NCBI GenBank assembly: GCA_964627535.1 | Contig: CAZVJW010000007.1 | Location: 3,144-67,143 of the forward strand | Reading direction: 5' to 3' | DNA: 64,000 nt | Source: an uncultured Eubacteriales bacterium | GTDB lineage: Bacteria > Bacillota > Clostridia > Oscillospirales > Acutalibacteraceae | Shown here: one piece after another, positions 3,210 to 33,882 of the stretch | Layout: each line of letters starts with the position of its first letter | How positions within the stretch are numbered: position 1 is the first letter of the stretch | Program-made: the position numbers and the translations under genes | The notes under the pieces: model-generated | What the model was told of the DNA's origin: nothing | The model's input: the letters and a program-made list of their open reading frames with translations, nothing else | Database searches by the model: none

Positions 3210-4406
3210 TTAATGAGCAGGTGTTGGTGTGTATATGCTCTTTGCGCCTGCTTTCAGTACATTCTTTGGGAGGTCGTCAAATAATTTTGCTACTGTGCCT
3301 TTAAAGAAAACTTTCCACGACATTTCGTCTGTATAGCCTTTTGTAATCATTGTCAAGCCCCTCTTGTATACTGCAGAGAATGAATTTCGACCACTATTAA
3401 TCCCGGTTACCTTTAAAAACTGGGGTGCCGCATTCTTGCCAGTACCTAACTTTGATACTAATCCCCCCACTGCTCCCACGGCTAATCCAATCGCTCCTGC
3501 AATCGCCATATCAGAAAAAATTTCGTCTGTGGTTTTACCTTCGAGTGTTCCTCCGATAAATTTAGACATATAGCCTCCCACGGCACCACCAAGAGCAGGA
3601 TGGCCGCAAGCAGTCATGAGACCAGTGATTGCACCGCCTGCAACAGCACCGACATAGGTTTGCCAGCTTGAAAGACCTTCTTGCTTACCGGTAACCATCA
3701 TAATAACGTCGCTAATCAACTGACCTCCCGCACCGCACAATGCGCCGATACTGGCACCGATTACCGCCGCAAACAGAGCACCCGCCACCCCGAATGTCGC
3801 TACTGTTAACACAGCCACAGCGACAACAGCGACGGCAACAGCGACGGCAATTAAGATTTCTTTCCAATGGGTTATAGCCCATTCCTTGATACCATTTAAA
3901 ACATTAAGATAAGCTTCACCAACTGACAGAAAGAACTTTCCTATTTTTGCTACAACACCGCCGATGCTGTTGATAACATCGCCGACAACACCGCAGAAAC
4001 CGCTGATTGCGCCGCCGACGCCGCTGCAGAATCTGTCCCAGTCACTAGGCGGAGCGGGTGGCCTGAGCCATGGGTTTGTCCGGTAAAACGCTTCCGTGGA
4101 ATTTTTGACAATACCCGCGACGGATTTGTCAACCCGGAGGGATGTCTGAATGAAGTTGTCTGTTTTGCCTCTGACATTCTGAACAGCAATTTTCCGTGTT
4201 TCCTCGGCCGTTTTGCGTGTATTAATGTAGCCAAGCGCGGTACTCAGCGTACCGACGCCACCGCTTATTCCGCAGGTTTTGTTCGTCACGTTCTGAAAAC
4301 TGTTTATTAAACTGTCGCTGGTTGCGTTATTAATGCCTACTGTTATTAAGGAGCACACTCCGTTAAAAAACGAATCCAAGCCCCCGGCGTTAATCTCCAA
4401 TCTCAT
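3210..4406 (-). CDS. Glycine-zipper membrane protein, 398 aa; candidate membrane-permeabilising toxin domain (TelE/TspA-like architecture)
   Basis: Three Gly/Ala-rich hydrophobic segments with GxxxG/AxxxG zippers (..FGVAGALFAAVIGASIGALCGAGG.., ..YVGAVAGGAITGLMTACGHPALGGAVGG.., ..MAIAGAIGLAVGAVGGLV..). The internal AVAVAVAVVAVAV stretch is encoded by a 12-nt microsatellite. It lies in frame with the upstream ORF across a single TAA. Confidence 0.55.
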   Translation of the reverse strand: MRLEINAGGLDSFFNGVCSLITVGINNATSDSLINSFQNVTNKTCGISGGVGTLSTALGYINTRKTAEETRKIAVQNVRGKTDNFIQTSLRVDKSVAGIVKNSTEAFYRTNPWLRPPAPPSDWDRFCSGVGGAISGFCGVVGDVINSIGGVVAKIGKFFLSVGEAYLNVLNGIKEWAITHWKEILIAVAVAVAVVAVAVLTVATFGVAGALFAAVIGASIGALCGAGGQLISDVIMMVTGKQEGLSSWQTYVGAVAGGAITGLMTACGHPALGGAVGGYMSKFIGGTLEGKTTDEIFSDMAIAGAIGLAVGAVGGLVSKLGTGKNAAPQFLKVTGINSGRNSFSAVYKRGLTMITKGYTDEMSWKVFFKGTVAKLFDDLPKNVLKAGAKSIYTPTPAH

Positions 4407-4433
4407 GTCATCACCCGCTTCTTTAAAAACTTT

Positions 4434-5000
4434 TTAGAATAAGTTTATTATTTCGGTTACCTGCGCCAATCGTTTCTCCATGTTATGTTTCTGAGAATTG
4501 AAGCCATTCAGTGCATTTTCGGCAGAACTTTTTTGATTTGCGTATTCGGCGCGGTTCCGGCTATTGGCTCGTTGGTTTCCTTCAGCGTTCTCTTTTGTCC
4601 GCTGTGCCTGACGGTATTGTGCTTGAGCCTCTTCCTTAGCCCGCGCATCAGACGTTTTATTCATCTCACGCTTATAATAATCCATGTTGTTGCTTGCATT
4701 ACGGATTGCCGACGAATAGTTTGTGCTGTCGCAAGCGCCGATTTTGGCATTCAGGTTATTAATAGTATTTTCGGCACTTGCAATACTCCTTTTCAGCTTA
4801 GCAATTTCCTGTTCCACACGGGATTTTTCTTTGCGGTACTCGCTGAGGGCTCCTTGTGTATTGGAGTCCTGCTTAACTGCAAAGATGCTGGAAAAATCAG
4901 CGCCGGCCATTCCACTGCACTTGATTGCACTCAGGAAAGTTGCTCCGACTGATTTTATGGAGTTGTTGGATGCGTTGATGCATTCCGATATAGTGGGCAT
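4434..5000 (-). CDS. Coiled-coil protein, 188 aa, Q/N/A-rich C-terminal half; possible N-terminal (LXG-like) carrier domain of a split polymorphic toxin
   Basis: RBS GGAGGT 7 nt upstream. The predicted helical coiled coil (EEAQAQYRQAQRTKENAEGNQRANSRNRAEYANQK) is in frame with 3210..4406, separated only by TAA + 9 codons. Confidence 0.45.
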   Translation of the reverse strand: MPTISECINASNNSIKSVGATFLSAIKCSGMAGADFSSIFAVKQDSNTQGALSEYRKEKSRVEQEIAKLKRSIASAENTINNLNAKIGACDSTNYSSAIRNASNNMDYYKREMNKTSDARAKEEAQAQYRQAQRTKENAEGNQRANSRNRAEYANQKSSAENALNGFNSQKHNMEKRLAQVTEIINLF

Positions 5001-5108
5001 TCGCTTTACCTCCGTTCAAGAATTTATTTGGTACGATGTGAACTTCCAAATGGAAATCTAAAAACTAAACTAAAGCACATTTTCAGGTAAATCGCTATCG
5101 AATCTGCT

Positions 5109-5747
5109 TTAAAGTCCCGCTCTGGCGCCCCATACTGCCAATTCCTTGCAGTTACGGAGCCCAAGCAATTCCCGGATACTGACGAGTTGATTCCTTAAAT
5201 GACCTTCGCTGACAAAAAGCTCTTTGGCAATCTCGGCGTCTTTTTTACCCGCTGTTATCCAGCGTATAATCTCCCTCTGCTTTTCCGACAATTTTTCGAT
5301 ATCTGCATTTGTTGTGCGAATTTCTCTTTTATCTGACAGTTGATCATGTATTGTTTCTCTAACCCCATTTTCGTAAGTCGAAAAACCCATCGATGTGCTT
5401 TTGATGATGGATATCAGTTCATTGCTTGTATGTCCTTTGTAAAGGTATCCGTCGCAGCCGCTCTTGATGGCAGCAATTTCGTTATCCTTGATCTGATAGA
5501 ATGTTAAAATTAATATTTTAATATTCGGATCCGTCCGCTTGATGAGTCCGCATACTTCAATGCCGTCCATCCCAGGCATCTTAATATCCAGCAGTACGAT
5601 GTCCGGCTTTATTTTCAGACAGCTGTCAACCGCTTCCATACCACTGTTAAACAACCCCGTGACAACGATACCCTCTTTGCCGTCAATATTCCTTTTTAAC
5701 GCCCTGGCAGCTTCGATATCATCGTCGACGATAATGACCAGAATCAT
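5109..5747 (-). CDS. Response regulator, NarL/LuxR family (REC + LuxR-type HTH)
   Basis: N-terminal VIIVDDD..LLDIKMPGMDG receiver motifs; C-terminal LSEKQREIIRWITAGKKDAEIAKELFVSEGHLRNQL HTH. Confidence 0.9.
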   Translation of the reverse strand: MILVIIVDDDIEAARALKRNIDGKEGIVVTGLFNSGMEAVDSCLKIKPDIVLLDIKMPGMDGIEVCGLIKRTDPNIKILILTFYQIKDNEIAAIKSGCDGYLYKGHTSNELISIIKSTSMGFSTYENGVRETIHDQLSDKREIRTTNADIEKLSEKQREIIRWITAGKKDAEIAKELFVSEGHLRNQLVSIRELLGLRNCKELAVWGARAGL

Positions 5748-5775
5748 TAATTTACCCCCCCAAACAGATTACCGT

Positions 5776-7473
5776 TTAGCATGCGTCTGAAATAACCAAA
5801 AACGGCAGTGTTGCCTTAATATTGAAACCTCCGCCGTTTGGTGAGCCGAAACTGAGCTTGCCGCCGAGCGAGTCGACTCTTTCTTTCATACTGTTGAGAC
5901 CATTCTTTGGTATAATATACTCGCAGCCTGCGCCGTCATCGGTGACGAAAAGCTTCAGCACGCCGTCTTCACTATGAAGTGTCACTGTAACATTGTTCGC
6001 ACGTCCATGCGCAAAGGAATTACTGATGGTCTCCTGGCAAATAAAATAGATTGTATCGCCAAGCTTTGTTTTGCTGATCTGACTGTCGTTTGCTATATTA
6101 TGAGAAAAATCAACATGCATCCCTTTGATCCGCAGTCTGTAAAACATGGTATCCAAAGCCGCTAACAAGCCTTTTTGCTCTATATCAATCGGCTTGAGCT
6201 CATCTACAATTCTTCTCAGTTGCACAAATGCCCCAATCGATTTATCATAGGAAATCCGCAGGCAGTCTTGAACCTCTTGAGTATCGGAAAAGTTGTTAAG
6301 CACATATTCCAGGTTGGAACTGATGACATTGATGCTGTTGCCCAGGCTATCGTGCAAATCATTCGAAACACGGTTCCTCTCGCTTAGCAAGGTTTGAATC
6401 CTGTACTCTGTCATATCCTTAAAAACAGCTAACTTTCCAATGGGTTTTTTACTTCCGGAATATAATGGTGAAATATTGACAGTATATTGTCTGCAGCCCT
6501 TTTTCGGCCAATACATAACCAGCGTGTCCTCATAAGCTTTATCTTGGTTCCCAGCCAACAGATTTACAATCTCGTCAATTTTGTTTTTATCTTCACAATA
6601 TTGATCCAGCGATTCAATTATTTTTCTGAAATCCACATATGGCTTACATACAGTTATTCCTTCGAAATAAAGATCGGCTGCCTCGTTGGATTCGATAATT
6701 TGCCAATTTGAATCGATAATAAACGCTGCTTCGTTCAATGTGGAAAAAATCTTTTGTGATGCCACCGGTATGATTTCTATCAAACGGTGTTTTAGGATAT
6801 ATACCGTGAGAACCACAAAAAAAACAGCTAAACTCGGCAGAGTCAGGTATATGCCGAGCTCCGTTAACGGTTTGACCATCACTTGTAAAATTTGAAGCAG
6901 GAGCGGCACACACACTGCAAGCGCCAACGGCCGAATACTTTTTTCCCCTCTACCTCGAAGCGTTCTGCCTATTAAAACAACAGCGGCAATGATGTAAAGA
7001 AATGAAAACACTTCACTGACAATCATCAGAATGCCCCAGACATCCTCATAACCGCCAAATTTTTTTGACTGTAGAACAAGATGAAAATACTTGAATGTAA
7101 ACAGAGGCCAGACACACAGCAGTTGCGGCAGCAGTACAAGAGAGATGATTTTGAGCTTGTTTCCTGAACTAATGATTCCGGAATAATAAAATGAAAAAAT
7201 TAGAAACAGCGCGCCTATGAACATAGTCGGCACCAAGGTAAGCCGAACATTAAAGTACATTTGCGCCTCACTGGAGGACATAAGCTCATTCATGTATAAA
7301 ATTATCCAAAAAATCAGGCAAAAATAAAATATTGTAAGACTGTAGAATTCCTGTGTCTTTTTTGCCCGGATAAAAATAATCGTGGCAGTCACGACGCACA
7401 AAATCAGCAAAGTCGCGTATGTCAACAAATTTAATTTCAAAACAAAGGTCAACAGCCTCACCCGATCCAACAA
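5776..7473 (-). CDS. Sensor histidine kinase, multi-pass membrane (about 7 TM), HisKA_3 + HATPase_c (ComP/DegS-like class)
   Basis: N-terminal ~230 aa of TM helices; H-box ..RNRVSNDLHDSLGNSI..; ATPase motifs ..VTDDGAGCEY.., ..LGGKLSFGSPNGGGFNI... Confidence 0.85.
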   Translation of the reverse strand: MLDRVRLLTFVLKLNLLTYATLLILCVVTATIIFIRAKKTQEFYSLTIFYFCLIFWIILYMNELMSSSEAQMYFNVRLTLVPTMFIGALFLIFSFYYSGIISSGNKLKIISLVLLPQLLCVWPLFTFKYFHLVLQSKKFGGYEDVWGILMIVSEVFSFLYIIAAVVLIGRTLRGRGEKSIRPLALAVCVPLLLQILQVMVKPLTELGIYLTLPSLAVFFVVLTVYILKHRLIEIIPVASQKIFSTLNEAAFIIDSNWQIIESNEAADLYFEGITVCKPYVDFRKIIESLDQYCEDKNKIDEIVNLLAGNQDKAYEDTLVMYWPKKGCRQYTVNISPLYSGSKKPIGKLAVFKDMTEYRIQTLLSERNRVSNDLHDSLGNSINVISSNLEYVLNNFSDTQEVQDCLRISYDKSIGAFVQLRRIVDELKPIDIEQKGLLAALDTMFYRLRIKGMHVDFSHNIANDSQISKTKLGDTIYFICQETISNSFAHGRANNVTVTLHSEDGVLKLFVTDDGAGCEYIIPKNGLNSMKERVDSLGGKLSFGSPNGGGFNIKATLPFLVISDAC

Positions 7474-7818
7474 TCATTATCTTTATTAATATAATAACAG
7501 ATAATTTTAATTAAGCAAGATGATAAATGTAATATTTTTCCGATTAAGGTTTTTCACATCAACATCATGATAGTATAAATGATAAGGACAAAATAAACAT
7601 TAATGGGAAATAATAAACAATGTTTTTGATGGAAATTTTTTAACCCAATATAAAGACGGAGCAGTAAATACGTTTTATTATGGCGTAAGGAGATGCTTTT
7701 TTGCTATCTCTCAGCTACTTCGTGCCAGCTCCCCTACATATGGGAGCCAAGACCGAGTGGATTTCGTGCTTGCCTCGCCTTCGCTAAGGAGAGGTGGCTG
7801 CGCAGCAGACGGAGAGGT

Positions 7819-7848
7819 AAAAAAAGCAGCTTCAATTGAAGCCGCTTC
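7819..7848 (-). terminator. Rho-independent terminator for the 7904..8580 gene (hairpin gcttcaattgaagc followed by T7 on the minus strand)
   Basis: Perfect palindrome plus a run of 7 A on the plus strand (= T-run on the minus strand). Coordinates +/-2. Confidence 0.5.
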
Positions 7849-7903
7849 CGGTACACCACAGGGGGTGTACCCTTCATATTTAGGATGAATATTGAATTTG
7901 CTC

Positions 7904-8580
7904 TTACCCTTTAATGAACTTCATTATCTTTTTTACATCCGCCAACGGGTTGAGCTTATAAACCTGCCCCGTAATTTTTTCGATGGCTTCCGGTTCTGTA
8001 ATACTTGCTGCTTCGTCAAACACATCGCTGCCGAAGAAGCTTTCCGTTGTGCAGAACACCGTTGACGACCAGCCGTATTCCTCCCCTATATGCGAGGCTT
8101 TTCTTTGCCTGCCGCACATGGTGATGTACATCTTCATCTGTAGCTCGACGATAGCTCTTTCAAAATGGGAACTGTCTTCTTTTGAAAAATTTCCAAATTG
8201 TTTGATTATATGAAACGGCATGCTTTCGTTGTCGCTCACCAAACCGTAAATCCTTTTGGCAAAGACGTTCATTGTACCGTCTGAATAAGCTTCTTCAAAG
8301 CTTTTGCCGCCCCGGCGAACAGCTAAAAAATACGGGTACCATTCTTTGTGATGAAGCCGCTTTTATTGATGAATAGTTTTGCGTATGCGATATCATCGCG
8401 CTCTTCCAAAACACGCATGCGCCATTCCCACGGGTCCGTTTCGGGGTCATCGGTGTGCCATGCTATTTGGCTGCCGAACAGGGAACAAAGCGAAAAAATG
8501 CCCTCGCTGTTCTCGCCGCCGGTTGAAAATCCGGCGTCAAGCAAAGCGGCTGTGAAGTCATTAAAATTTTGTATTTCCAC
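7904..8580 (-). pseudogene. Hypothetical protein split by a 1-nt frameshift in an A-run (ORFs 8323..8580 + 7904..8272 would fuse to ~215 aa)
   Basis: The frame of 7904..8272 stays open upstream to beyond 8345. Adding one A to acaaag (around 8335) gives a continuous ..FINKSGFITKEWYPYFLAVRRGGKSFEEAYSDGTMNVFAK.. protein. Confidence 0.45.
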
Positions 8581-8644
8581 TTAATTCACCTCAACTTATT
8601 CCTCTGTTCATTTATCCTAAGTTTTTAAGGTAAGGGTAAGAAAA

Positions 8645-9526
8645 TTATTTCTTTTCAACAGGTATCCAAAGCTCATAATACCGTTTCTGCCGTTCTTCTT
8701 TTGGGAACAAATGATAAACCTCGATTTCATAATCGCGTGTTTGCTTGTATCCCGAACTGTCAAGCCAAGAGTCAAATATCTGTTCACGGAGTTTTGGAAG
8801 CTCGTCACCGGCGTAACCGCCATATCCTGTTGTGAACACAGCATAGGTGCCGGCGTTGATAAAAACCTCGTCAAGTCCTTCGCCTGTGACTTCAGCCTTG
8901 TCTTTGGCTATGGAGTATTTACCGTTATCCCAAATTCCATACCAAACGCCGGGGACATTTGTGCTAACCTTATTTTGAACATCATCATGGTGGTCAGCCC
9001 ACATGATATGTTCTTGCTCAAAGCGGTCTGCGGCAACGCCAGTAAACTGTTTGCTCAGCCCTTTTAAAACTACGTTTTCAGTTTCAATAATCTTGAAATT
9101 CATCGCCTTTGCTCCTTTAATCATAACGTGAAAGGAAATCGGGGGATAGATTTTCAAGGGTGCACCTTGTGTTCGGGCCATCCCGGGTGTTAAACCGTGC
9201 TGTTTTAAGAAAGCTCTGCTGAATGCATCCGCACTGTTATAGCCATATTTTACAGAAACATCAATCACTTTAATATCCGAATTTTGAAGCTCAAACGCTG
9301 CAAGAGTCAATCGCCTGTGTCTGATGTATTCAGATAAAGTAACGCCGGCTAAGTAACTAAACAATCGCTGAAAACCATCAGGAGAATTTAATGTAATTTT
9401 CGCGACCTCATTGATATCAATTTCGTCACATAGACTGCTCTCAATATACTCAATCGCAGAGTTTAGACTTTCTAATATATCCACCTTTTTCACCTCCGGA
9501 TATAATTGTAGCAAATATTGAAGCAA
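8645..9526 (-). CDS. AraC-family transcriptional regulator with GyrI-like effector-binding domain
   Basis: N-terminal HTH_AraC (..RLFSYLAGVTLSEYIRHRRLTLAAFEL.., ..YGYNSADAFSRAFLKQHGLTP..) and C-terminal GyrI-like beta-barrel region. Confidence 0.8.
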   Translation of the reverse strand: MLQYLLQLYPEVKKVDILESLNSAIEYIESSLCDEIDINEVAKITLNSPDGFQRLFSYLAGVTLSEYIRHRRLTLAAFELQNSDIKVIDVSVKYGYNSADAFSRAFLKQHGLTPGMARTQGAPLKIYPPISFHVMIKGAKAMNFKIIETENVVLKGLSKQFTGVAADRFEQEHIMWADHHDDVQNKVSTNVPGVWYGIWDNGKYSIAKDKAEVTGEGLDEVFINAGTYAVFTTGYGGYAGDELPKLREQIFDSWLDSSGYKQTRDYEIEVYHLFPKEERQKRYYELWIPVEKK

Positions 9527-9597
9527 TATAACCGACTTTATCCGGCCGGGATTTACAGATTATCGAGCCTATATTATATTCTTCCTCATCTGTGCCA

Positions 9598-9697
9598 TAC
9601 TAATTCACGATTAAAAACCTCTAAAAAATTAAGCAAAAGCTTTAATCTATAAGGTTTTGTGCGGATTTTTTAGTTAGGTTTTTATGAGTAATTAGTA
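9598..9697 (-). repeat. MITE-like ~100-bp element with terminal inverted repeats, copy 1 (inverted orientation)
   Basis: Rev-comp aligns end-to-end with copies at 13455 and 41056: tactaattactcataaaaacctaactaaaaaatccgcacaaaacc...aaagcttttgcttRattttttagaggtttttaatcgtgaattagta. Confidence 0.85.
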
Positions 9698-9702
9698 TCA
9701 CA

Positions 9703-10149
9703 TCACAAAAGTTTTTTAATTTCTGCTTTTAAAATCATTTTCATTTCGCCAAGTTCCGCTTCTGACGGTCTTTTGCTGTCATTCCACATTTCTTCTCTCG
9801 GCAGCCACCATACGGGGCCCTTTTCCGGCATGTCGCCTTCATTCCTGGGAAATATATGCCAATGCAAATGAGTTTCGCCGTTGCCCAACAGTTCATAATT
9901 CAGTTTTTGAGGGTTAAACGCATTATAGACAGCCTCCGCGACCAAAGCCATTTCCTCAAGGTATTTCAGTTTGAATTCAGGTTCAAGAAAGTGCAGCTCG
10001 GCTGCATGCTCTTTGCATAAGAACAAGGTATATCCCTTAAAATGCTGATGATCCCCAAGCACAACATAGCCTGTTTCAAGCTCATAAACGAAGTATGGGT
10101 TTGTACCGTCTTTTGTTTGTTGTATTCTATCGCATACCGGACATTTCAT
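9703..10149 (-). CDS. HIT-family (histidine triad) nucleotide hydrolase
   Basis: HxHxHxx motif (..GETHLHWHIFPR..), ~150 aa. Confidence 0.8.
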   Translation of the reverse strand: MKCPVCDRIQQTKDGTNPYFVYELETGYVVLGDHQHFKGYTLFLCKEHAAELHFLEPEFKLKYLEEMALVAEAVYNAFNPQKLNYELLGNGETHLHWHIFPRNEGDMPEKGPVWWLPREEMWNDSKRPSEAELGEMKMILKAEIKKLL

Positions 10150-10721
10150 CCTTTACCCTCCGATTTCTTGTTTAGATTCACTTGCTCCTTAATATACTCC
10201 ATCGTAAAGGCAGGCTTCAGTGTTAGATTTTCTTTAGCCAGAATTTCGGTTGCGTTTTCGTTTCTTTGAATGACACAAAGCACAGTGTCAATAATAGCAC
10301 CCCTGTTGCGAAGCTCTTTTACACTCTCGATTATTTGACCGCCGGTGGTAACAACATCTTCAACAACGCAAACTCTCTTACCGTTAACATCAGCGCCCTC
10401 TGCCAATTTGCATGTACCGTATTACTTAGCTTTTTTTCTGACAAATGCGCAATGAATATTCGCTTCAATAGAAAGCGCGGTTGCAACCGGTATGCCGCCC
10501 ATCTCTAAACCTGCTAACACTTCTGTATCCGCCGGAATCAAGTCTCTCATAATTTTTGCTATTTGAACGAGCAATTGCGGCTGCGCTTCAAACAGATACT
10601 TGTCAAAGTATTCATTGGATATTTGTCCTGAACGCAAAGTGAATTCTCCTGTTATGTGCGCTGTCTCATAAATACTTTTTGCGATATCAGTTTTTAACAT
10701 TTTATTCTCCTTGTATTTCAA
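10146..10721 (-). pseudogene. Orotate-phosphoribosyltransferase-like type I PRTase interrupted by an in-frame TAA (10422-10424)
   Basis: ORFs 10422..10721 (..GGIPVATALSIEANIHCAFVRKKAK*) and 10146..10406 (..GKRVCVVEDVVTTGGQIIESV..) are in the same phase and together align with PyrE (FVRKEAKDHGTG..GxRVLVVEDVITTG). Only a TAA separates them. Confidence 0.75.
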
Positions 10722-11586
10722 AATTCTGACTCATTGATTTTACCATACGCAAATACTCCGTTATATTTTTATCTTCGTCTTGGTTATAAGAAAATCCTAA
10801 ATGCCCGGCGACAGTGGGTGCTATTGTTCTGAACAACTCGCAGGCAGTAAGTATTGCCGGCCAAAGGTTATCATAACTGCTGTCGGAATAGGTCTTGGCG
10901 TACATTTCATACAAGTCTGACAGCAGATATTTTTTATAATACTTACCGCTCATACCCACCGAAACAGAGAAGTCCGTCTTGATACCGATATACCAATCAA
11001 TCATCTTAACGAGCATATCGCGCACAATGACATTGTACATCCACATGGCATATGGCAATTGATCTCTCGCAATTCCTTTGGCCACATTATTCAGGCACCA
11101 CCAAAACTCGTTGCAGCAGCTTGAATATTTAATTTCGGTTGGTTTTTGAACCCAATAATTCTCATCGGACGGTGGTGGAATTTCGGGCAGGCAGTTGTCT
11201 TTATCAAGCAGGGGAACTGTCAACTTGTCGTTTTTATATTCGTCAAGCATGGCTTCTTTTGTTTGGATATGCAAATCAATGCGGTTTCCGTCTTTAAACA
11301 GCATCAGCCAGGTGTAAGAACGGTCAAATTCCATTTTCATTTCAAAGCCGATGTCGTTTATATCCGGTTCTTGCAGAATAGCCAGCTCTCCGAAAACCGA
11401 AATCCAATTTTTATCTTTCAGAAAAGACTTGGTTTCTTTTACAACATAGACAATATCGTAATCCTGATAGATATCTTTGGTAACATTGGGGTTGGCGCGC
11501 GAACCGTTCAAATAAACAGCACGAATACGCTCATCAGCTTTCGCAACGCCCAAAATCAGGTCGAACATTTTTCTTTCTGTACGCAT
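10702..11586 (-). CDS. ant(6): Aminoglycoside 6-nucleotidyltransferase ANT(6) (AadE/AadK family, streptomycin adenylyltransferase)
   Basis: MRTERKMFDLILGVAKADERIRAVYLNGSRANPNV.. closely parallels AadE MRSEKEMMDLVLSLAEQDERIRIVTLEGSRANINI..; conserved ..CCNEFWW.. block; ~294 aa. Confidence 0.85.
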   Translation of the reverse strand: MRTERKMFDLILGVAKADERIRAVYLNGSRANPNVTKDIYQDYDIVYVVKETKSFLKDKNWISVFGELAILQEPDINDIGFEMKMEFDRSYTWLMLFKDGNRIDLHIQTKEAMLDEYKNDKLTVPLLDKDNCLPEIPPPSDENYWVQKPTEIKYSSCCNEFWWCLNNVAKGIARDQLPYAMWMYNVIVRDMLVKMIDWYIGIKTDFSVSVGMSGKYYKKYLLSDLYEMYAKTYSDSSYDNLWPAILTACELFRTIAPTVAGHLGFSYNQDEDKNITEYLRMVKSMSQNFEIQGE

Positions 11587-12524
11587 TTCGAGCCTCTTTT
11601 CTGTTTGTCATCCGGAGTAACAATATTAGATTTCAAGTTCCTGTCAACAATTTTCTCGCCGTTTTGCAACTTGCCAATCAGCATCTCACCATCTTGCTTA
11701 TGCTTTTCACAATTACGTTTAACCGATGACTCGCTGTAATTGGCATAACAGTATATGCAGCTATTTTTGCATGTGTTGTAAGCTCCAATATCGATACTTT
11801 GATAGCATCCACAGCCCTTACGCTGATTATAATCGGGTGAAATATTTAGCTTCGCTCCACATATTCGTTCAATTAAGGCTTTATCAACACAGCTTGCTTT
11901 TTCTATTCCAAATATTGTTAAATCGTTGGATTCCGAGCAAGCCTTTGCAATGAGACCATACTCTTTTGCCGTTTTTCCAATAAATTCACTAAGGTTCGCA
12001 ATTTCATCAGTTGTAATTTGACGAACTGAATCTGTCTTTAATTTTGCATAGGTATCGACAAAACTGATTGTTACACTTTCGGTATACGGATAAAGTTTGT
12101 CGCAAAGCCTTGAAAACTGCTCTTTATGGTAATCCACCGATAAACTGCTATTTAACACGATAGGGTCATATCGCCACAAAACGCGCTCTTTTCCGATTGC
12201 ATTGCTGAGTTCAATAAAAGAGTTTTCAATATCGGCTTTATCACGTAAATTTCTTTCAATTGTTCTGTCATACGGTGTTAGCGTGTGTTGAAAATAGAAT
12301 TTATAGCCCATATCGTCAATTGCTTTAAGATGCGGAATAAAATTTTTTGCATCTTTCGTCCAAAACACAATACAGTCAACTACATCGGGTGAAAGCAGGA
12401 TTTTACTTATTTGTGCATGATTCATCGGATTGCGTGAAAGAAAATACCCCGCTTTCAAGCGGTTCATAAACCACTCGACGTAATAGCAGGGGATGTCTGT
12501 ACGGCGGGAAACGGAGAGTATCAT
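11556..12524 (-). CDS. DUF1848-family protein (Cys-rich, putative Fe-S)
   Basis: Family-typical N-terminus MILSVSRRTDIPCYY; C-terminal Cys cluster CGCYQSIDIGAYNTCKNSCIYCYAN. The start is set at the internal ATG (12522-24, RBS GAGGTGA) because the track start at 12575 lies inside repeat copy 2. Confidence 0.6.
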   Translation of the reverse strand: MILSVSRRTDIPCYYVEWFMNRLKAGYFLSRNPMNHAQISKILLSPDVVDCIVFWTKDAKNFIPHLKAIDDMGYKFYFQHTLTPYDRTIERNLRDKADIENSFIELSNAIGKERVLWRYDPIVLNSSLSVDYHKEQFSRLCDKLYPYTESVTISFVDTYAKLKTDSVRQITTDEIANLSEFIGKTAKEYGLIAKACSESNDLTIFGIEKASCVDKALIERICGAKLNISPDYNQRKGCGCYQSIDIGAYNTCKNSCIYCYANYSESSVKRNCEKHKQDGEMLIGKLQNGEKIVDRNLKSNIVTPDDKQKRGSKCVQKEKCST

Positions 12525-12574
12525 AAAATCACCTCGCAATCCTGTGGATTTATATTGATTATCCTGTGCAATCA

Positions 12575-12707
12575 TACTAATTATTCATAAAAACCTAACT
12601 AAAAAATCCGCACAAAACCTAATAATACTATTCTGCATTAAAATGAAGAATCGTATGAATCAAAGCTTTTGCTTGATTTTTTGGAGATTTTTAATCGTGA
12701 ATTTGTA
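12575..12707 (+). repeat. MITE-like element copy 2 (133 bp; carries a 33-bp internal insertion)
   Basis: Same TIRs (tactaattattcataaaaacctaactaaaaaat ... atttttaatcgtgaatttgta). Confidence 0.85.
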
Positions 12708-12738
12708 TCAGTTGTTCAAGTACGATATTTGTATATTG

Positions 12739-13353: not shown

Positions 13354-13454
13354 TAAGCAACCCCGCTTTCAATTATGGGAAAGTTTTTTATCACAATCAA
13401 TCTCAGCGAAAGCACAGTAAGCAATGCAAAATACAAATAGTTGAGGCACGATTA

Positions 13455-13555
13455 TACTAATTACTCATAAAAACCTAACTAAAAAATTCGCACAAAACCT
13501 AATGAATCAAAGCTTTTGCTTGATTTTTTTAGAGGTTTTTAATCGTTAATTAGTA
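13455..13555 (+). repeat. MITE-like element copy 3 (101 bp)
   Basis: tactaattactcataaaaacctaactaaaaaattcgcacaaaacctaatgaatcaaagcttttgcttgatttttttagaggtttttaatcgttaattagta. Confidence 0.9.
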
Positions 13556-13570
13556 TTAGGTCCCTTTGAT

Positions 13571-14365: not shown

Positions 14366-14376
14366 ATAAACTGATC

Positions 14377-16101: not shown

Positions 16102-16106
16102 TGATC

Positions 16107-16729: not shown

Positions 16730-16828
16730 TACTGATTCACGATTAAAACCTCTAAAAAATCAAGTAAAAGCTTTTATTTATGCGGTTTTGCGTGGATTTT
16801 TTCTTAGGGTTTTTATGAGTGATTAATA
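16730..16828 (-). repeat. MITE-like element copy 4 (inverted orientation, more diverged)
   Basis: tactgattcacgattaaaacctctaaaaaat ... ttcttagggtttttatgagtgattaata; rev-comp aligns with the family consensus. Confidence 0.8.
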
Positions 16829-16899
16829 TTGTCTGCAAAACATATAAAAGATATTATCTTTCGGACAAATAATTTGGCTGAAACAAGGGGTGTGCCGCA

Positions 16900-18146: not shown

Positions 18147-18611
18147 ATGGAGGCAAATAAATTGAAAAACTACAGGTCAGGCAGAGTTATCTCATTTATT
18201 TTTGCCGCGTTCTTTCTTTTCTTCGCGGTTTACGCAACCTATGACAGAGCCGGCTTTAAAAGCAATTCGATTGTAACACAAGGCAAGGTGGTGGACATCG
18301 TAACGGAATCCACCAGCAAAACGGACAGGGTTTTCATCTTTATTACGAGAAACATTGAAAAATCGATTATTGAGTACACGGATAAAAACGGGGACACTTA
18401 TACAAAATCGGAAGCGCCCTTTTTCAAAAAAGCACCATATGCGCTGAATGATACAGTAGATATCCGATACAATCCCGAATTCCCCGAATCCGGCATTGTG
18501 GACACTTTCACAAATCTTTTCGGATTTACGCTTCTGTTTTATTTCATCAGTTTTGTATTCTTTTTCGTGTTCTTCTATTTGAAAGTGATGCAAAAGGGGA
18601 AGAAGAAGTAG
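18147..18611 (+). CDS. DUF3592-family membrane protein (two TM helices flanking a beta-rich core)
   Basis: TM helices at both termini. The likely true start is TTG at ~18162, 8 nt after GGAGG. Confidence 0.6.
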   Translation: MEANKLKNYRSGRVISFIFAAFFLFFAVYATYDRAGFKSNSIVTQGKVVDIVTESTSKTDRVFIFITRNIEKSIIEYTDKNGDTYTKSEAPFFKKAPYALNDTVDIRYNPEFPESGIVDTFTNLFGFTLLFYFISFVFFFVFFYLKVMQKGKKK

Positions 18612-18628
18612 TAGTGGTCAGTGGTCAG
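18612..18628 (+). repeat. TAG + 2x TGGTCAG heptamer tandem directly after a stop codon
   Basis: tag|tag tggtcag tggtcag. Related arrays lie at 22201 and 24953. Confidence 0.8.
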
Positions 18629-18672
18629 ACGCTACCTGAAAGACACTTGAGCCTGAAAGGAAGGATATAATC

Positions 18673-19131
18673 ATGGCGAAAAAGACCTTTGAGGAAAAGC
18701 TGAATGACAACAGGGATATGCCGAAACTCATTGAGCTTGACGACCCGAAACAAATCAAACAGTACGGCGGTAAAATTATGCTGATAGCTCCACCTCTTGC
18801 TTATGACGCGATTATGAAACAAGTACCGAACGGTAAACTGATAACCGCCGACATCATCAGAAATTATTTGGCAAAAAAGCATGGCGCTGATTTCACCTGC
18901 CCGCTGACAGCCGGAATTTTTATGAACATTGTTGCCGGCGCGGCCGCAGAGCGGAAAACAGACGAAACGCCTTATTGGCGCACACTCAGAAAAGACGGTG
19001 AGCTCAACGAAAAATATCCGGGCGGAGTTGACGCGCAAAAACTGCATCTCGAAATAGAGGGGCATACCGTTATTCAAAAAGGCAAACGCTGGTTTGTGAA
19101 GGATTATAAAGAGAAATTGTTTGATCTGTGA
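18673..19131 (+). CDS. Hypothetical protein, 152 aa (possibly MGMT/Atl-like DNA-binding fold; unsure)
   Basis: Clean ORF with RBS GGAAGGA. No confident motif. Confidence 0.4.
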   Translation: MAKKTFEEKLNDNRDMPKLIELDDPKQIKQYGGKIMLIAPPLAYDAIMKQVPNGKLITADIIRNYLAKKHGADFTCPLTAGIFMNIVAGAAAERKTDETPYWRTLRKDGELNEKYPGGVDAQKLHLEIEGHTVIQKGKRWFVKDYKEKLFDL

Positions 19132-19155
19132 AGTTAAGAAGAAAAGAGAAAGTCT

Positions 19156-19559
19156 GTGAATATCGTTTACAAAGATACAAATGATTTTAACCCCGATGAT
19201 TTGCAGGAGCTGTTTTTGTCGGTTGAGTGGTCCTCCGGCCACTTTCCGGAAAAACTGGCAGTTGCGATGCAAAACAGCGGCACCGTTTTCTCGGCATGGG
19301 CCGGCGAAAACTTGTTGGTCTGATCAACGTTTTGGACGACGGTATAATGACCGCTTATGTTCATTACTTGCTGGTGAACCCGGAATATCAGGGCAAGGGC
19401 ATCGGCAAAGAATTGGTGCTTCTTGTAAAAGAGAAATACAAAGATTATCTCAGAACTGTTTTAATAGCGTATGATAAGGAAGCTGAATTTTACCGCCGCC
19501 TCGGGTTTGAGGCGGGAACCGGGAAAAGTCCGATGTTTATCACTTCGCTCTGGACTTGA
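19156..19559 (+). pseudogene. GNAT N-acetyltransferase disrupted by a -1 frameshift in an A-run (~19306-19311)
   Basis: A GTG-initiated frame (VNIVYKDTNDFNPDDLQELFLSVEWSSGHFPEKLAVAMQNSGTVFSAWAGE) runs into a stop at 19321. ORF 19227..19559 continues the same protein in the -1 phase (..KLVGLINVLDDGIMTAYVHYLLVNPEYQGKGIGKELV..). One extra A in gaaaac restores a ~134-aa GNAT. Confidence 0.7.
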
Positions 19560-19619
19560 GAATGGTTCGTCTGCGAAGCGGCATATGGTGCAATTTATTT
19601 CCTCAACAAAGGAGCAGTT

Positions 19620-19979
19620 ATGAAATACGGGTGGCTTGATGAATATTGCCTTTCGAAAAAAGGCGCCGAAAAAGATTTTAAGCCGGAATGGAACGCGACC
19701 CGCTACATGATAAGGGGTAAAATGTTCGCCATGCTTGGGGGCGATAAAAACGGGACGCCGATTATTACGGTAAAGCTGGAACCGTTGTTCGGCGAGCTTT
19801 TAAGAAAACAATATAAAGATATCATCCCCGGCTATTATATGAACAAGGAGCATTGGAACTCACTTTATTTGGACGGCGATGTTCCGGACGCTGTGTTGAA
19901 AGATATGCTGGATAAGTCATACAATATTTTGCTTGCGTCTTTCAGCAAAAAGGCGCAAAATGAGATAATCGCTGAGTAA
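19620..19979 (+). CDS. MmcQ/YjbR-family DNA-binding protein
   Basis: 119 aa; family-typical ..KMFAMLGGD.. and ..HWNSLYLDG.. Confidence 0.65.
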   Translation: MKYGWLDEYCLSKKGAEKDFKPEWNATRYMIRGKMFAMLGGDKNGTPIITVKLEPLFGELLRKQYKDIIPGYYMNKEHWNSLYLDGDVPDAVLKDMLDKSYNILLASFSKKAQNEIIAE

Positions 19980-20011
19980 CATATAACAGCCAACATCAAA
20001 CAAAGTAAGGA

Positions 20012-20440
20012 ATGGATATGATTATGGGCAAAGTTTTAAGGTCAAACAATATGAATAAATGCATCGGCTGCTTTACCTGCCAAAGGGTTTGCGCCGGCAT
20101 CAACCACAAGTCGTTTACCGACGATAAAAGCGCAATAAAAATACGTACACTTGGCGGATTATCCGGTAAGTTTTTTGCCACGCACTGCCTTGCCTGCACC
20201 GGGGACATCGCCTGCATGAATGCCTGCCCGACCGGCGCGCTGACGGAAAGACCCGGCGGCGGCGTGATACTCAATGAAAAGAAATGTATTCATTGCAAAA
20301 AATGCGCCGAAAGCTGTATTGTGAAAGCAATTTATTTTACCGATGACAACTCTCCGCCCATCATCTGCAAACACTGCGGAATCTGTGTAAAATATTGCCC
20401 CCACAATTGCCTGACCATGGAGGATAAGGACGATGCTTAA
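20012..20440 (+). CDS. 4Fe-4S dicluster ferredoxin-domain protein (AOR partner)
   Basis: Three CxxCxxCxxxC-type clusters (CIGCFTCQRVC, CIHCKKCAESC, CKHCGICVKYCP); overlaps the AOR start by 8 nt. Confidence 0.8.
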   Translation: MDMIMGKVLRSNNMNKCIGCFTCQRVCAGINHKSFTDDKSAIKIRTLGGLSGKFFATHCLACTGDIACMNACPTGALTERPGGGVILNEKKCIHCKKCAESCIVKAIYFTDDNSPPIICKHCGICVKYCPHNCLTMEDKDDA

Positions 20441-22196: not shown

Positions 22197-22200
22197 AAAG

Positions 22201-22753: not shown

Positions 22754-22768
22754 TGCTCTCAAGTACTT

Positions 22769-23863: not shown

Positions 23864-23883
23864 CATTTTGAGGAGAATGACGG

Positions 23884-24951: not shown

Positions 24952-24952
24952 G

Positions 24953-24976
24953 TGGTTAGTGGCTAGTGGTCAGTGG
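24953..24976 (+). repeat. 3x heptamer tandem TGGTTAG TGGCTAG TGGTCAG (+TGG), 1 nt after the stop codon
   Basis: Direct reading of the sequence. Confidence 0.85.
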
Positions 24977-25016
24977 AACGTAGGGGCGACCTTTGTGTCG
25001 TCCGTAATCCCCGGGC

Positions 25017-26705: not shown

Positions 26706-26784
26706 ATTAGATATTAAATTATTTATATTTCTATTATGGAGTAAAATATTTTGTGCCATAAAGAATAAGTAATTGGATATAAAA

Positions 26785-26815
26785 AAGAAACAATCATCAT
26801 GTAAAGTAGTATTGT
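26785..26815 (+). promoter_or_regulatory. Conserved motif aaaGAAACAAtcatcATGTAAAGTAGTattg upstream of the SGNH gene (shared with 28071-28107)
   Basis: About 22 of 28 identities, including a perfect 12-mer ATGTAAAGTAGT, with the site upstream of the OmpR regulator gene. Confidence 0.45.
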
Positions 26816-26848
26816 TTAAAGGCTTGCTATTGATAAGGGGGTATTCGT

Positions 26849-28015: not shown

Positions 28016-28070
28016 TCTATGATATGACGGTTATTATGATTGTGTCAAAAAGAAAAAGGTTTTGGACACA

Positions 28071-28107
28071 AAAAGGAAACAACTTCGATGTAAAGTAGTG
28101 CTATTCG
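28071..28107 (+). promoter_or_regulatory. Second copy of the GAAACAA...ATGTAAAGTAGT motif, ~115 nt upstream of the response-regulator gene
   Basis: aaaagGAAACAActtcgATGTAAAGTAGTgctattcg. Confidence 0.45.
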
Positions 28108-28219
28108 AATTATTCATTTCTATTTTACATGAGGTTTTTTGCATCTTCGATTCTTATTTGACCACAGTTGATACATCAGTGTGGATTCATGTTTAATAAA
28201 TACATCGGGGGAAGCTGTT

Positions 28220-28891
28220 ATGAGTTACAGAATATTGATGGTTGAAGATGACTCGCGGTACATGAAGCTCGTTTCGGACTATTTCAGAAAAAACGGTTTC
28301 TTTGTTACCTGCGCCGAAAACGGCGACAAGGCATTGCAGATATTTGCAAACGAGGATTTCGACGCTGTTCTGCTCGATGTGATGATGCCGGGAGTAGATG
28401 GATATTATGTATGCAAAAGGCTGCGTGAAACCAGCAATGTTCCGATTCTGTTTGTTACGGCCAGGGGTGATCTGAGCGACACCGAGTACGGCTTTCGCCT
28501 GGGCGCGGATGACTATATTGTTAAACCGTATTCCGAAAGAGTTCTGCTGCTGAAGGTGCAGGCACTGATTGACCGGGCGCAGGGCGCGCTGGTCTCGGGC
28601 AATGTGATAGAGCTCTGTGGTATATACCTTGACAAGGAAACGCACAGAGCAACGGTTGATGGCGAGGAAATTCAGCTCACGCCGAAACTCTTTTCCATGC
28701 TGCTGTTGCTGATGGAACACAAGGGGAAGGTGCTTTCCCGGGAGCAGTTGCTCGACCGGGTGTGGGGTTACGACTTTTTCGGCGACGCAAGAGTGGTGGA
28801 CACACATATCGCAAAGTTGAGGAAAGCACTCGGAAAAAGTGAAGACCATATAGAAACCATCCCGAAATTAGGCTACAAGTTCGAAGAATAA
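28220..28891 (+). CDS. OmpR-family response regulator
   Basis: MSYRILMVEDD.. receiver domain; C-terminal winged helix (..ETIPKLGYKFEE). Start set at the ATG with RBS GGGGGAAG. Confidence 0.9.
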   Translation: MSYRILMVEDDSRYMKLVSDYFRKNGFFVTCAENGDKALQIFANEDFDAVLLDVMMPGVDGYYVCKRLRETSNVPILFVTARGDLSDTEYGFRLGADDYIVKPYSERVLLLKVQALIDRAQGALVSGNVIELCGIYLDKETHRATVDGEEIQLTPKLFSMLLLLMEHKGKVLSREQLLDRVWGYDFFGDARVVDTHIAKLRKALGKSEDHIETIPKLGYKFEE

Positions 28892-28941
28892 ATGCTGCCC
28901 GGTTCCGATCATCAAGCTTTTCAAGAGAGGAATGCTGTGTT

Positions 28942-30834: not shown

Positions 30835-30983
30835 TAACAAGTAAATCAAAAAAATTATTCGCAAACTTCTCCATAAACAAATATATTTTTTTAAAATATT
30901 GTTTTTGCTGCTCAACAAGAGTAAAATAATTAGCATAGTATTTAAATTAATAGTAAATATTTTAAACAAAAGGAGCGATATTC

Positions 30984-33017
30984 GTGTCTGATTTTTTAAC
31001 AATCATCTTCTATGTTGTCGGCGCTCTGGTATTCCTGTATCTGTTCATCTTCAAGGTTTTAGGGCTGAGGGTCATCGCCTCAAACGAGGTTGCGGTTATT
31101 GAAAAATGGTGGAGTATGAAAGGCTCGCTGAAGGACGCGATTATCGCGCTCAACGGTGAAGCGGGCTTTTCACCCGACCTGCTTCGCGGCGGCATCCATT
31201 TTAAGTCAGTCTTCATGTACAAAATTCACAAATATCCGCTGATAACAATCCCGCAAGGTCAAATAGCTTATGTTTTTGCGAAAGACGGCACCCCCTTGAA
31301 CCCCAGCCAAACACTGGGCAAGGTGGTTCCTGAAGCCAACAATTTTCAAAGTGTACGCGGCTTTCTTCAAAACGGAGGGCAAAGGGGCCCCCAAAGAGGA
31401 ATCATCAGAGAAGGTACCTATGCAATCAATTTAGCGCAGTTTATTGTCATTACACCAACTGCCATCAAATCCGTCAATACAGGCGACAGGCAGGAGCAGA
31501 GCCAAATTATCACTATGCAGCAAACGCTTGCTATGAGAGAAGCATTCAGCCCGGTTGTTATTATGGGCAACAAAGAAAACTCTTCGAGCGACATCATGGG
31601 CATCGTAACCGTGCACGACGGTCCTTCACTCCCGCAGGGTGAGATTATCGCGCCGAGTGTCGGGCAGGAACACGCGAGTTTCCAGGATCCCGAAAAATTT
31701 TTAGCGCTTAACGGTAAACGAGGCAAGCAAATTGAGGTCTTGACAGACGGTACTTACTATATCAACAGGCTTTTCGCCACTATTGAGTACAGACCAAAAA
31801 CCGTTGTGCCCATCGGGTTTGTCGGCGTTGTGGTTTCCTTCTTCGGTAAAGAAGGCGTTGATACAACCGGCGAAGAGTACAAACACGGCGAGCTTGTGGG
31901 CGAAGGCTGCAAGGGCGTGCTTGAAAAACCGCTGATGCCCGGTAAATACGCCTTCAATACGGACGCCGGCAAAGTGGTTCTTGTCCCAACTACCAACATC
32001 ATCCTGAAATGGAACAAGAGCGAAACCGGCGACCATAAATACGACGAAAACCTGACGGAAGTCGACATCATCACCAAGGACGCTTTCGAGCCTTCTCTGC
32101 CACTGTCGGTTGTTATGCATATCGACTATAAGCAGGCCCCATGGGTGATTCAACGCTTCGGCGACATCAATATGCTCGTCAACCAATCCCTTGACCCGCT
32201 GGTCGGCGCTTATTTCAAGGATGTCGCGCAGACAAAGACTTTAATCGAATTGATTCAGGAGCGCAGCGCTATCCGCGAAAGAGCGGTTTCCGAGATGAGG
32301 GAAAAATTCGCCAAATATAACCTTCAGCTTGAAGAAGTCCTCATCGGTACACCAAAATCTCCGGTAACGGATATTATGATTGAAAACATCTTAACCCAGC
32401 TTCGCGAGAGGCAGATAGCGGAAGAAAAGAAAGTTACCTACCAAAAGCAGCAGTCCGCAGCCGAGAGCGAGAAGTCCCTGCGCGAAGCGGAAGCCGTAGC
32501 GGCTCAGCAGGGTCTGCTGACAGAATCAAAGATTAAGATTGATGTTGAGAGAAACAGCGGTGCCGCGCTTGCCAGCAAGGCGGAGCAGGAAGCCAACCAG
32601 ATTATCGCGCTTGCGCGTGCTAACGCGACTAAGGTAAGACTTGAAGGCGAGGCGGATGCTTCGAAAGAATCCAACGTCGGTTTGGCAAGAGCGCAGGCTA
32701 TCGACGCACAGGTAAAAGCTTACGGCGGCGCGCAATACAGAGTTATCCAGGAAGTTGTTGACAAACTTTCCGATGCCATTAAGAATTCGAGCGTTGATAT
32801 CGTGCCGAAAACTGTTGTCAATATGGGCGGCAATTCGGACAGTGACGGCAACGGCAGCAGCACGGTATTAGATACACTGCTGAAGTTCATTACCATCGAA
32901 AAACTCGGCGTTTCGCTTCAGAATCCTCCCGAGCCGACAGCGCCTTACGAAGCACAGGAACCGATTGCAATACCTTCCAAAGAAGAACCGACGGCTTCCG
33001 AAGAAATGAAAAAGTAA
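30984..33017 (+). CDS. Flotillin-family (SPFH/band-7) membrane protein, 677 aa
   Basis: N-terminal TM helix; SPFH-like region; long Ala/Glu/Gln-rich coiled coil (..EAEAVAAQQGLLTESKIKIDVERNSGAALASKAEQEANQIIALARANA..). GTG start with RBS AAGGAG. Confidence 0.6.
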   Translation: MSDFLTIIFYVVGALVFLYLFIFKVLGLRVIASNEVAVIEKWWSMKGSLKDAIIALNGEAGFSPDLLRGGIHFKSVFMYKIHKYPLITIPQGQIAYVFAKDGTPLNPSQTLGKVVPEANNFQSVRGFLQNGGQRGPQRGIIREGTYAINLAQFIVITPTAIKSVNTGDRQEQSQIITMQQTLAMREAFSPVVIMGNKENSSSDIMGIVTVHDGPSLPQGEIIAPSVGQEHASFQDPEKFLALNGKRGKQIEVLTDGTYYINRLFATIEYRPKTVVPIGFVGVVVSFFGKEGVDTTGEEYKHGELVGEGCKGVLEKPLMPGKYAFNTDAGKVVLVPTTNIILKWNKSETGDHKYDENLTEVDIITKDAFEPSLPLSVVMHIDYKQAPWVIQRFGDINMLVNQSLDPLVGAYFKDVAQTKTLIELIQERSAIRERAVSEMREKFAKYNLQLEEVLIGTPKSPVTDIMIENILTQLRERQIAEEKKVTYQKQQSAAESEKSLREAEAVAAQQGLLTESKIKIDVERNSGAALASKAEQEANQIIALARANATKVRLEGEADASKESNVGLARAQAIDAQVKAYGGAQYRVIQEVVDKLSDAIKNSSVDIVPKTVVNMGGNSDSDGNGSSTVLDTLLKFITIEKLGVSLQNPPEPTAPYEAQEPIAIPSKEEPTASEEMKK

Positions 33018-33041
33018 ATCAAGTCAACCAGAAAAGCATAG

Positions 33042-33077
33042 CCCCCAAGCGAAAAGGAAAACGCTTGGGGGTTATTT
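33042..33077 (+). terminator. Rho-independent terminator (cccccaagcg...cgcttggggg + T-rich tail)
   Basis: 10-bp GC stem followed by TTATTT. Confidence 0.7.
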
Positions 33078-33252
33078 GATAGATCGTCCGCTTTTTAATA
33101 TACTTATTTCGTAAGATAGAGAGTGACAAACAGGATTTTATTAATGCTACGAATCGTTGCTTGCTACAAAGCGATTCTTGATTGCCACAATGCAAAGAGA
33201 TAAGCTGTAATTGCGGCAGAGAAGCTGTAATACATATAAGGAGTTAAATATT

Positions 33253-33882
33253 ATGACTTTAGGTGAAAAAATCAAAGATGCAAGATAACAAAATGGCTTG
33301 ACTCAGGATGAGTTTGCAAACAAGCAGATGGTATCCAGACAAGCTGTTACCAAATGGGAAGCAGACAAAGGAATTCCTGATGTTGAAAATCTGATGTTGC
33401 TGTCTTCGGTTCTTGGTATCAGCATAGACTATCTGCTTTCCGATGAAGAAGTAACCGAAAAATTAGTCATACATGAAAAAATCGACCTTGCGGCTTACGG
33501 TAAAGGCAGCAAGAAGAAAAAGAAAGATTACATTGTGAAAGAAAAATATCCAAATGCAGTAATTCACACATTAATGATTATTCAAAAAAACTCCCAAACG
33601 GAGAAAGTTATCGACAATGTGCTTGGATTTGTATTTCTTGCCCCGTTTGGTATTCCAGGCTTTATTAATTCGACTAAACATATAGGCAAGGAGTTTTATC
33701 TTGTGAACTATGGTGAAAAGCAGTTACTTGTAATGGTCACTGATGAATTTATCGAAAGTCGGGAAATGACACGGAAACGGTTGAATCAGAAAGGTGAGAA
33801 GTTTGAAATCGGACTATATCGCTTTACAAACTACGGACCAATCGCTGGAAACACAATGGGACGGACGGTTCTACCGCGTTGA
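33253..33882 (+). pseudogene. XRE-family HTH regulator with C-terminal domain, interrupted by an in-frame TAA at codon 12 (33286-33288)
   Basis: The ATG at 33253 gives MTLGEKIKDAR*QNGLTQDEFANKQMVSRQAVTKWE.., a canonical HTH_XRE N-terminus. The track ORF 33298..33882 is the in-phase remainder. Confidence 0.75.

Follow-up and report, generated by a model that had tools for sequence, protein, structure and literature searches.

The DNA considered here is a 64-kb window, meaning the whole stretch of 64,000 nucleotides that was analysed, on a contig of an uncultured Eubacteriales bacterium. Its subject is a group of small accessory genes in this window whose reading frames are each interrupted by a single lesion. 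The first-pass annotation had listed five such point lesions, three of them in-frame TAA codons and two of them -1 frameshifts in A-runs. Each of the five sites was tested with Pfam and with homologues, and the other genes of the window were screened for their open reading frames (ORFs). The window holds 56 complete genes, of which 4 are disrupted and 52 have uninterrupted ORFs. The disrupted genes and the sites of their lesions are as follows.

7904..8580, minus strand: AlkZ-related (PF24741) pseudogene, 677 nt, length modulo 3 = 2
8345..8347, minus strand: -1 frameshift site in an A3 run on the coding strand (inferred former A4), with the frame switch in ACAAAG
10146..10700, minus strand: type I phosphoribosyltransferase (PRTase) pseudogene, 184 codons including the internal stop, Pribosyltran on both fragments
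10422..10424, minus strand: in-frame TAA in place of Glu93, GAA>TAA (coding-strand G>T), from intact homologues and the DNA of the relative L004
19156..19559, plus strand: GNAT acetyltransferase pseudogene, start-to-stop length modulo 3 = 2
19307..19310, plus strand: -1 frameshift site in an A4 run (inferred former A5), from the frame switch of the homologues
33253..33882, plus strand: XRE/HTH_3 regulator pseudogene, 209 codons, with a downstream ORF of 194 aa
33286..33288, plus strand: codon 12 read as an in-frame TAA, with Lys AAA>TAA inferred from the homologue alignment

In the PRTase gene, the Pfam family Pribosyltran is split over the two fragments, with profile positions 10-62 on one and 83-135 on the other, and both flanks of the stop thus belong to one domain. 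Through the 90 %-identity clusters of both fragments, nine intact homologues of 177 aa were found, with identities of 83-93 %, and all nine have Glu in the column of the TAA. The closest intact homologue (P0004) is 93 % identical. At the DNA level, the closest relative (L004), whose locus is not syntenic with the window, reads AAG GAA TAC, as against AAG TAA TAC in the window. When the ratio of nonsynonymous to synonymous changes (pN/pS) was taken against this relative, it came to 0.057 upstream of the stop and 0.058 downstream. As there is no sign of relaxed selection past the stop, the lesion appears to be very recent. Judging from the domain positions, the PRTase would be truncated before its VCVVEDVVTTGG phosphoribosyl pyrophosphate-binding loop.

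The other in-frame TAA lies in the XRE gene, which starts as MTLGEKIKDAR*QNGLTQDEF, the asterisk being the stop. When the gene was queried alone, the family search gave 921 matches, mostly of 195-201 aa, and codon 12 corresponds to Lys in 106 of 115 homologues. In four of the homologues (P0065-P0068), the sequence ARKQNGLTQ stands against AR*QNGLTQ in the window, with no other difference around the site. Residue 1 of the downstream 194-aa ORF falls on position 10 of the HTH_3 profile, and profile positions 1-9 are missing. A re-initiated product, if there is any, would accordingly be expected to be without the first part of the helix-turn-helix (HTH) domain.

The AlkZ-related gene is disrupted by a frameshift. 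Here, PF24741 is spread over two fragments, with profile positions 1-76 at 8323-8580 and 104-221 at 7904-8272. In tblastn, the alignments in frame -2 end at 8344-8350 and those in frame -1 start at 8338-8347, which places the frame switch at 8344-8347. With the missing A restored, the gene reads SGFITKEWYPYFLAVRR, as compared with SGYITRAWYPYFLAARR in a homologue. An A6/T6 run at 8325-8330 lies downstream of the conserved WYPYF motif, and this motif already reads in the new frame; the deletion is hence assigned to the A3 run and not to the A6 run. The homologues of this gene and of the GNAT gene came from a query of three joined repaired proteins, which gave 14 matches, mostly fused or miscalled proteins.

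Similarly, in the GNAT gene, Acetyltransf_1/7/10 are matched in their C-terminal part only, in the ORF at 19227-19559. By tblastn, the homologues align in frame +1 as far as about 19317, and their frame +3 alignments begin at about 19299-19308. Adding one A back to GAAAAC gives AWAGEKLVGLINVLDDG, in agreement with the homologues. From the domain positions, both the AlkZ-related and the GNAT proteins would be cut in the middle of the domain.

The fifth site, the TAA at 4434, is of a different kind. It lies between two adjacent genes in the same frame, which belong to a cluster at 1-5000.

4434..5000, minus strand: intact gene for a 188-aa helical protein with weak YwqH-like/DUF4407 similarity, partner of the toxin-like gene
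4434..4436, minus strand: natural TAA stop of the 188-aa gene, no lesion; the orthologue on the relative contig L009 has the identical IINLF-TAA end
3210..4406, minus strand: intact 398-aa polymorphic-toxin-like gene of a WXG100 (type VIIb-like) cluster, its N-terminal domain (MRLEINAGG) conserved
1149-1463 and 819-1127, minus strand: WXG100 genes of the same cluster

Reading through 4434 would give ...EIINLF*KVFKEAGDDMRLEINAGG..., and a search with this fused 188+398-aa product returned 24 homologues of 350-1017 aa. All of them match the 398-aa part, and none of the 24 covers the 188-aa part. Among eight aligned homologues of the 398-aa protein, the MRLEINAGG N-terminus is found in all eight, and seven start at the Met of MRLEINAGGLD; the start of P0026 is called four codons before it. 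In addition, on the relative contig L009, a 188-aa gene stands on its own immediately before a 422-aa toxin homologue, and its 188-aa protein is 81 % identical to that of the window. After the stop of the 188-aa gene come about 27 nt of spacer, in which there is a GGTGA-type Shine-Dalgarno sequence, and then the next gene start; in L009, too, a short spacer leads to the start of the next gene. Since the homologues never span both ORFs and the relative keeps two separate genes, the TAA at 4434 is an ordinary stop between two intact genes, and the toxin-pair lesion that had been claimed there is not upheld.

The order of the cluster is the 188-aa gene, the toxin-like gene, a 436-aa TPR gene, a gene of about 110 aa and the two WXG100 genes, and it is identical in L009. 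The cluster is comparable to the type VIIb (WXG100-associated) polymorphic toxins of the LXG/Lap-like kind, in which it shares the small helical gene immediately upstream of the toxin-like gene, the conserved N-terminal domain with a variable C-terminus, and the presence of WXG100 and TPR genes. At the C-terminus, GH-E, ADP-ribosyltransferase or RHS domains are found in some of the homologues of the 398-aa protein. Unlike the LXG toxins, the 398-aa protein matches no Pfam family at E <= 0.01, the LXG domain (PF04740) included; neither the MRLEINAGG domain nor the 188-aa partner belongs to an annotated family. Beyond the WXG100 genes, there is a protein with 24-aa tandem repeats (a 72-bp repeat, 300-581), which runs off the window. 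A candidate pseudogene at 263-1400 on the plus strand was rejected as an artefact of ORF picking, the actual genes there being the two WXG100 genes and the repeat protein on the minus strand.

Thus, out of the five lesions of the first-pass annotation, those in the PRTase, XRE, GNAT and AlkZ-related genes are supported by homologues, and the one at 4434 is a normal gene end. The three in-frame TAA codons are reduced to two, at 10422 and 33286. The A-run frameshift placed at 19306 in the GNAT gene agrees with the frame switch seen by tblastn. For the gene at 7904-8580, the frameshift itself was upheld, with its coordinate of 8335 about 10 nt off and the run being A3 rather than A6. It also holds that the lesions are of just two kinds, nonsense TAA and the -1 frameshift in an A-run.

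The remaining genes of the window give no reason to doubt the genetic code. Most of the 52 intact genes have full-length Pfam matches, and 11 are without any Pfam family match. Their terminators are TAA in 29 cases, TGA in 16 and TAG in 7. TAA is not avoided as a terminator, and in the intact genes that end with it, the Pfam domains stop at the ORF ends. It had been stated earlier that TAA still terminates most intact genes and that its reassignment is excluded, and both statements hold. Because TAA terminates 29 of the 52 intact genes and the two internal TAAs stand for different residues of the homologues, Glu in the PRTase and Lys in XRE, reassignment of TAA can be taken as excluded, and the code, as read from these genes, is standard.

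The share of disrupted genes, 4 out of 56, comes to 7 %. The probability of finding at least four is 0.003, 0.03, 0.09 and 0.31 at baselines of 1, 2, 3 and 5 %, respectively. The excess of lesions is mild and local, and it falls on a run of small accessory enzymes and regulators. In the window genes, TAA makes up 44 % of the single-base routes to a stop; that both nonsense codons are TAA is unremarkable and expected about one time in five.

The explanation that fits best, with a probability of about 72 %, is that each of the four genes, which are small, accessory and dispensable, has received one recent, real loss-of-function mutation that was present in the sampled population. Two single-base transversions would have created TAA, the stop that is most easily reached in an A+T-leaning coding sequence. 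The two one-base deletions in short A-runs would be the classic product of replication slippage. The mutations may persist owing to weak selection on the AlkZ-related, PRTase, GNAT and XRE genes, and the four genes would not have been eroded further or deleted yet for the reason that the events are young. The youth of the lesions is suggested by the single lesion per gene and by the pN/pS of the PRTase gene, which is unchanged after the stop. The lesions would then be biological rather than read-level errors, and weak selection would explain their placement. An actively decaying accessory region had been among the alternatives named at first. Genuine young decay fits best, as this alternative has it, with the decay confined to small dispensable genes and no decaying region as such.

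The main alternative is that of a sequencing or assembly artefact, in which the four lesions would be read or consensus errors and the genes would be intact in the organism. The sources proposed for such errors are low coverage, errors following homopolymers and the resolution of bubbles in a metagenome. A second assembly bears directly on this question. Exact protein matches place the window on an NCBI contig of 107,828 bp, and the same proteins were found in the Logan assembly of the run SRR8925725, in which contigs lie over all five sites (window 4291-7384, 7789-9626, 9672-12614, 18569-20053 and 32570-41075). Along 17,866 bp, the identity of these five contigs to the window is 100 %, free of mismatches and gaps. 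In Logan, unitigs are built by Cuttlefish2 from 31-mers seen at least 2 times, and contigs by Minia3 (PMC12424806). Each 31-mer across the lesions has hence been seen at least twice in the reads. As all the sites recur when the raw reads are assembled independently by a de Bruijn method, an error of the assembler or of polishing is excluded. Noisy long-read data would presumably be incapable of yielding such contigs. The contig ends that were tested (9626/9672, 12614 and 41075) fall on copies of a repeated intergenic element and not on the lesions. The contig numbers of this Logan assembly, above 700,000, suggest a complex metagenome; a literature search for the run gave no match.

Several points weigh against real mutations. 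The evidence is at the assembly level. The deposited and the Logan contigs probably share one run, so that an error present in at least two reads could appear in both. With lengths of 1.5-8.5 kb, the Logan contigs are short, a possible sign of modest coverage. Moreover, a large number of the internal-stop pseudogenes of public assemblies have been shown to be artefacts, their stops and frameshifts depending on coverage, platform and assembler (Cooley & Wright, PMC11017572). One lesion per otherwise pristine gene is what errors would produce as well, and the signature of selection does not change past the PRTase stop. Furthermore, every lesion is in or near A-rich sequence, and both substitutions are located 6-15 nt downstream of A6/A7 runs. 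An exact look-up of the four 'repaired' proteins in a collection of 15 billion proteins found no intact allele. In a scan of the GTDB representatives with the neighbouring ANT(6)-like protein, aimed at a close relative for synteny, the best match had only 75 % identity.

Against an artefact, the distribution of the lesions can be set beside the agreement of the two assemblers. All four lesions are in genes of at most 677 bp, which amount to 16.5 % of the coding bases, and the longer genes, with 83.5 % of the coding bases, have none; under a uniform per-base error, this has p = 7e-4. The intact genes contain 107 homopolymers of at least 6 nt (6 nt: 88; 7 nt: 16; 8 nt: 3), all of them unshifted, and the two frameshifts sit in runs whose present lengths are 3 and 4 nt. 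A stop is created by only 4.2 % of random substitutions in the window genes, so that for two stops to arise by error, about 50 substitution errors would be needed in 58 kb. This is incompatible with the 0 differences between the assemblies, although errors shared through the same reads are invisible in that comparison. In simulated Illumina assemblies at 10x or less, about one spurious pseudogene arises per Mbp (PMC11017572). The lesion density of the window is about 62 per Mbp, which is about 60 times this simulated low-coverage rate. The four genes are like the spurious pseudogenes of Cooley & Wright (2024) in having stops or frameshifts in a draft, metagenome-derived assembly while being otherwise pristine, and unlike them in that a second assembler reproduces the sites, that the lesions do not scale with gene or homopolymer length, and that their density is far above expectation. 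With all this taken together, an artefact is considered rather unlikely. The particular version in which long-read homopolymer or consensus errors are responsible, as had been put forward before, is a poor fit, in view of the second assembly, the unshifted homopolymers and the sparing of genes above 677 bp.

Another proposal is that of a raised mutation load throughout the genome, caused by a mutator, a bottleneck or an ecological shift, with the window as a mere sample of it. It is compatible with the young-pseudogene explanation. The pseudogene share usual in free-living bacteria is 1-3 %, and the 7 % seen here exceeds it, with probabilities of 0.003-0.09 at these baselines. All the lesions are young, one of the broken genes (the AlkZ-related one) is related to a DNA-repair glycosylase family, and a repeated intergenic element is present in about 7 copies per 64 kb. 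On the other side, the sample is 64 kb only, the half from 34 to 64 kb, with 21 genes, is without a lesion, the count is unremarkable at the 5 % baseline (P = 0.31), and four events are too few to define a mutational spectrum. A raised load is, for these reasons, held to be improbable.

For the XRE gene alone, a further question is raised by a short homologue (P0082) of 174 aa, from an unrelated metagenome-assembled genome (MAG; locus L092 2926-3528, GCA_018064925.1, JAGHUH010000027.1). The XRE orthologue at this locus is 62 % identical to that of the window and reads MTLGEKLKETRK*NGLTQ, with an in-frame TAA (CAA>TAA) at codon 13, one codon past the codon-12 TAA of the window. The same early TAA is also present in the Logan assembly of another run (L093, SRR10505694). 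An early TAA as a feature of the whole XRE family was rejected, as an early stop was found in 0 of 61 metagenome loci. One metagenome locus of the family (L140 265-872) has a frameshift near codon 56, from which it follows that disrupted XRE-family copies recur at a low rate. The match of codons 12 and 13 is probably due to chance, given the ascertainment, since only early lesions leave a long fragment that can be retrieved. It is regarded as very improbable that the early TAA of the window is anything but a random event. If it were, the A-rich AGAAAACAAAA context could be a hot spot of mutation, or an early knock-out or switch of XRE could have been selected for repeatedly. In the case of selection, an HTH-less C-terminal domain might be expressed by re-initiation.

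The weakest alternative, recoding, by which the genes would still be expressed through TAA read-through with a suppressor tRNA or through slippage at the A-runs, is hardly credible. The unchanged signature of purifying selection downstream of the PRTase stop and the second MAG, whose XRE orthologue has an in-frame TAA at the next codon, are in its favour. Against it, TAA ends 29 of the 52 intact genes with Pfam domains that stop at the ORF ends, the internal TAAs replace both E and K, and the homologues are single uninterrupted ORFs, so that the frameshifts are not conserved. No tRNA gene, including one with the anticodon UUA, was found within the 64-kb window, to which this check for a suppressor is confined. 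Efficient transcriptional slippage needs roughly 9 or more A's, and the A3 and A4 runs are far below this length. Within the window, tolerated nonsense suppression, which had also been suggested earlier, is thus without support.

The lesions can also be compared with known systems. Stop-codon reassignment or suppression, as in codes 4 and 25 for TGA or with amber and ochre suppressor tRNAs, is alike in having in-frame stops inside conserved domains, and unlike in that TAA is here the commonest terminator, with just two internal TAAs, at E and K, and no suppressor tRNA in the window. Programmed frameshifting or slippage, as in prfB, dnaX and the transposases of IS elements, is alike in the change of frame at an A-run. 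It differs in that the runs here are of 3-4 nt, no conserved slippery heptamer is present and the homologues are unshifted single ORFs. The likeness to ordinary young bacterial pseudogenes (e.g. Pseudofinder, PMC9336565) is much closer. Common to both are a conserved ORF with intact homologues, a single disabling mutation in it, whether a nonsense change at one base or an indel of 1 nt within a mononucleotide run, and the restriction of such mutations to accessory genes. There is nothing substantive in which the four genes differ, apart from a somewhat high density, 4/56, and the fact that all four are very recent.

A few other elements of the window may be described. The repeated intergenic element is about 110 nt long, and its copies are given below.

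9614-9698 (minus), 12571-12713 (plus), 13451-13561 (plus) and 16745-16829 (minus): copies 1-4
41052-41161 (plus), 59278-59384 (plus) and 61927-62017 (plus): copies 5-7

All of these copies, about 7 in 64 kb, lie between genes, and 5 matches to the core were found as against 0 expected. The element has inverted termini, ATACTAATTA...TAATTAGTAT, and an internal hairpin-like core, AATCAAAGCTTTTGCTTGATTTTTT. It looks like a miniature inverted-repeat transposable element or a repetitive extragenic palindromic element. Rfam gave no match in the window, this element included. The Logan contigs break at copies of the element.

They also break at 7384 and 7789, at the 431-bp spacer (7473-7904) between a histidine kinase gene and the AlkZ-related pseudogene. 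One half of this spacer is very A+T-rich and the other is G+C-rich, and the G+C-rich half looks structured. No Rfam match was found in the spacer (7400-7950), even at E <= 1. Towards the other end of the window, at 59390-61588 on the minus strand, there is a gene for a 732-aa protein with BspA-type leucine-rich repeats, Listeria-Bacteroides repeats and a type I dockerin domain. This protein suggests that the organism belongs to a cellulosome-bearing lineage of Clostridia.

For the annotation of this DNA, the 188-aa and 398-aa genes are to be entered separately, both of them intact and both part of a WXG100-associated toxin cluster, and the window sequence is as trustworthy as two concordant assemblies can make it. 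The combination of concordance between k-mer assemblies, a bias towards short dispensable genes and the lack of a preference for long homopolymers may serve as a test for real pseudogenes that needs no reads. The AlkZ-related, PRTase, GNAT and XRE genes should be labelled as pseudogenes. The phenomenon is an already known one, that of ordinary young pseudogenes, and it opens no new biology.

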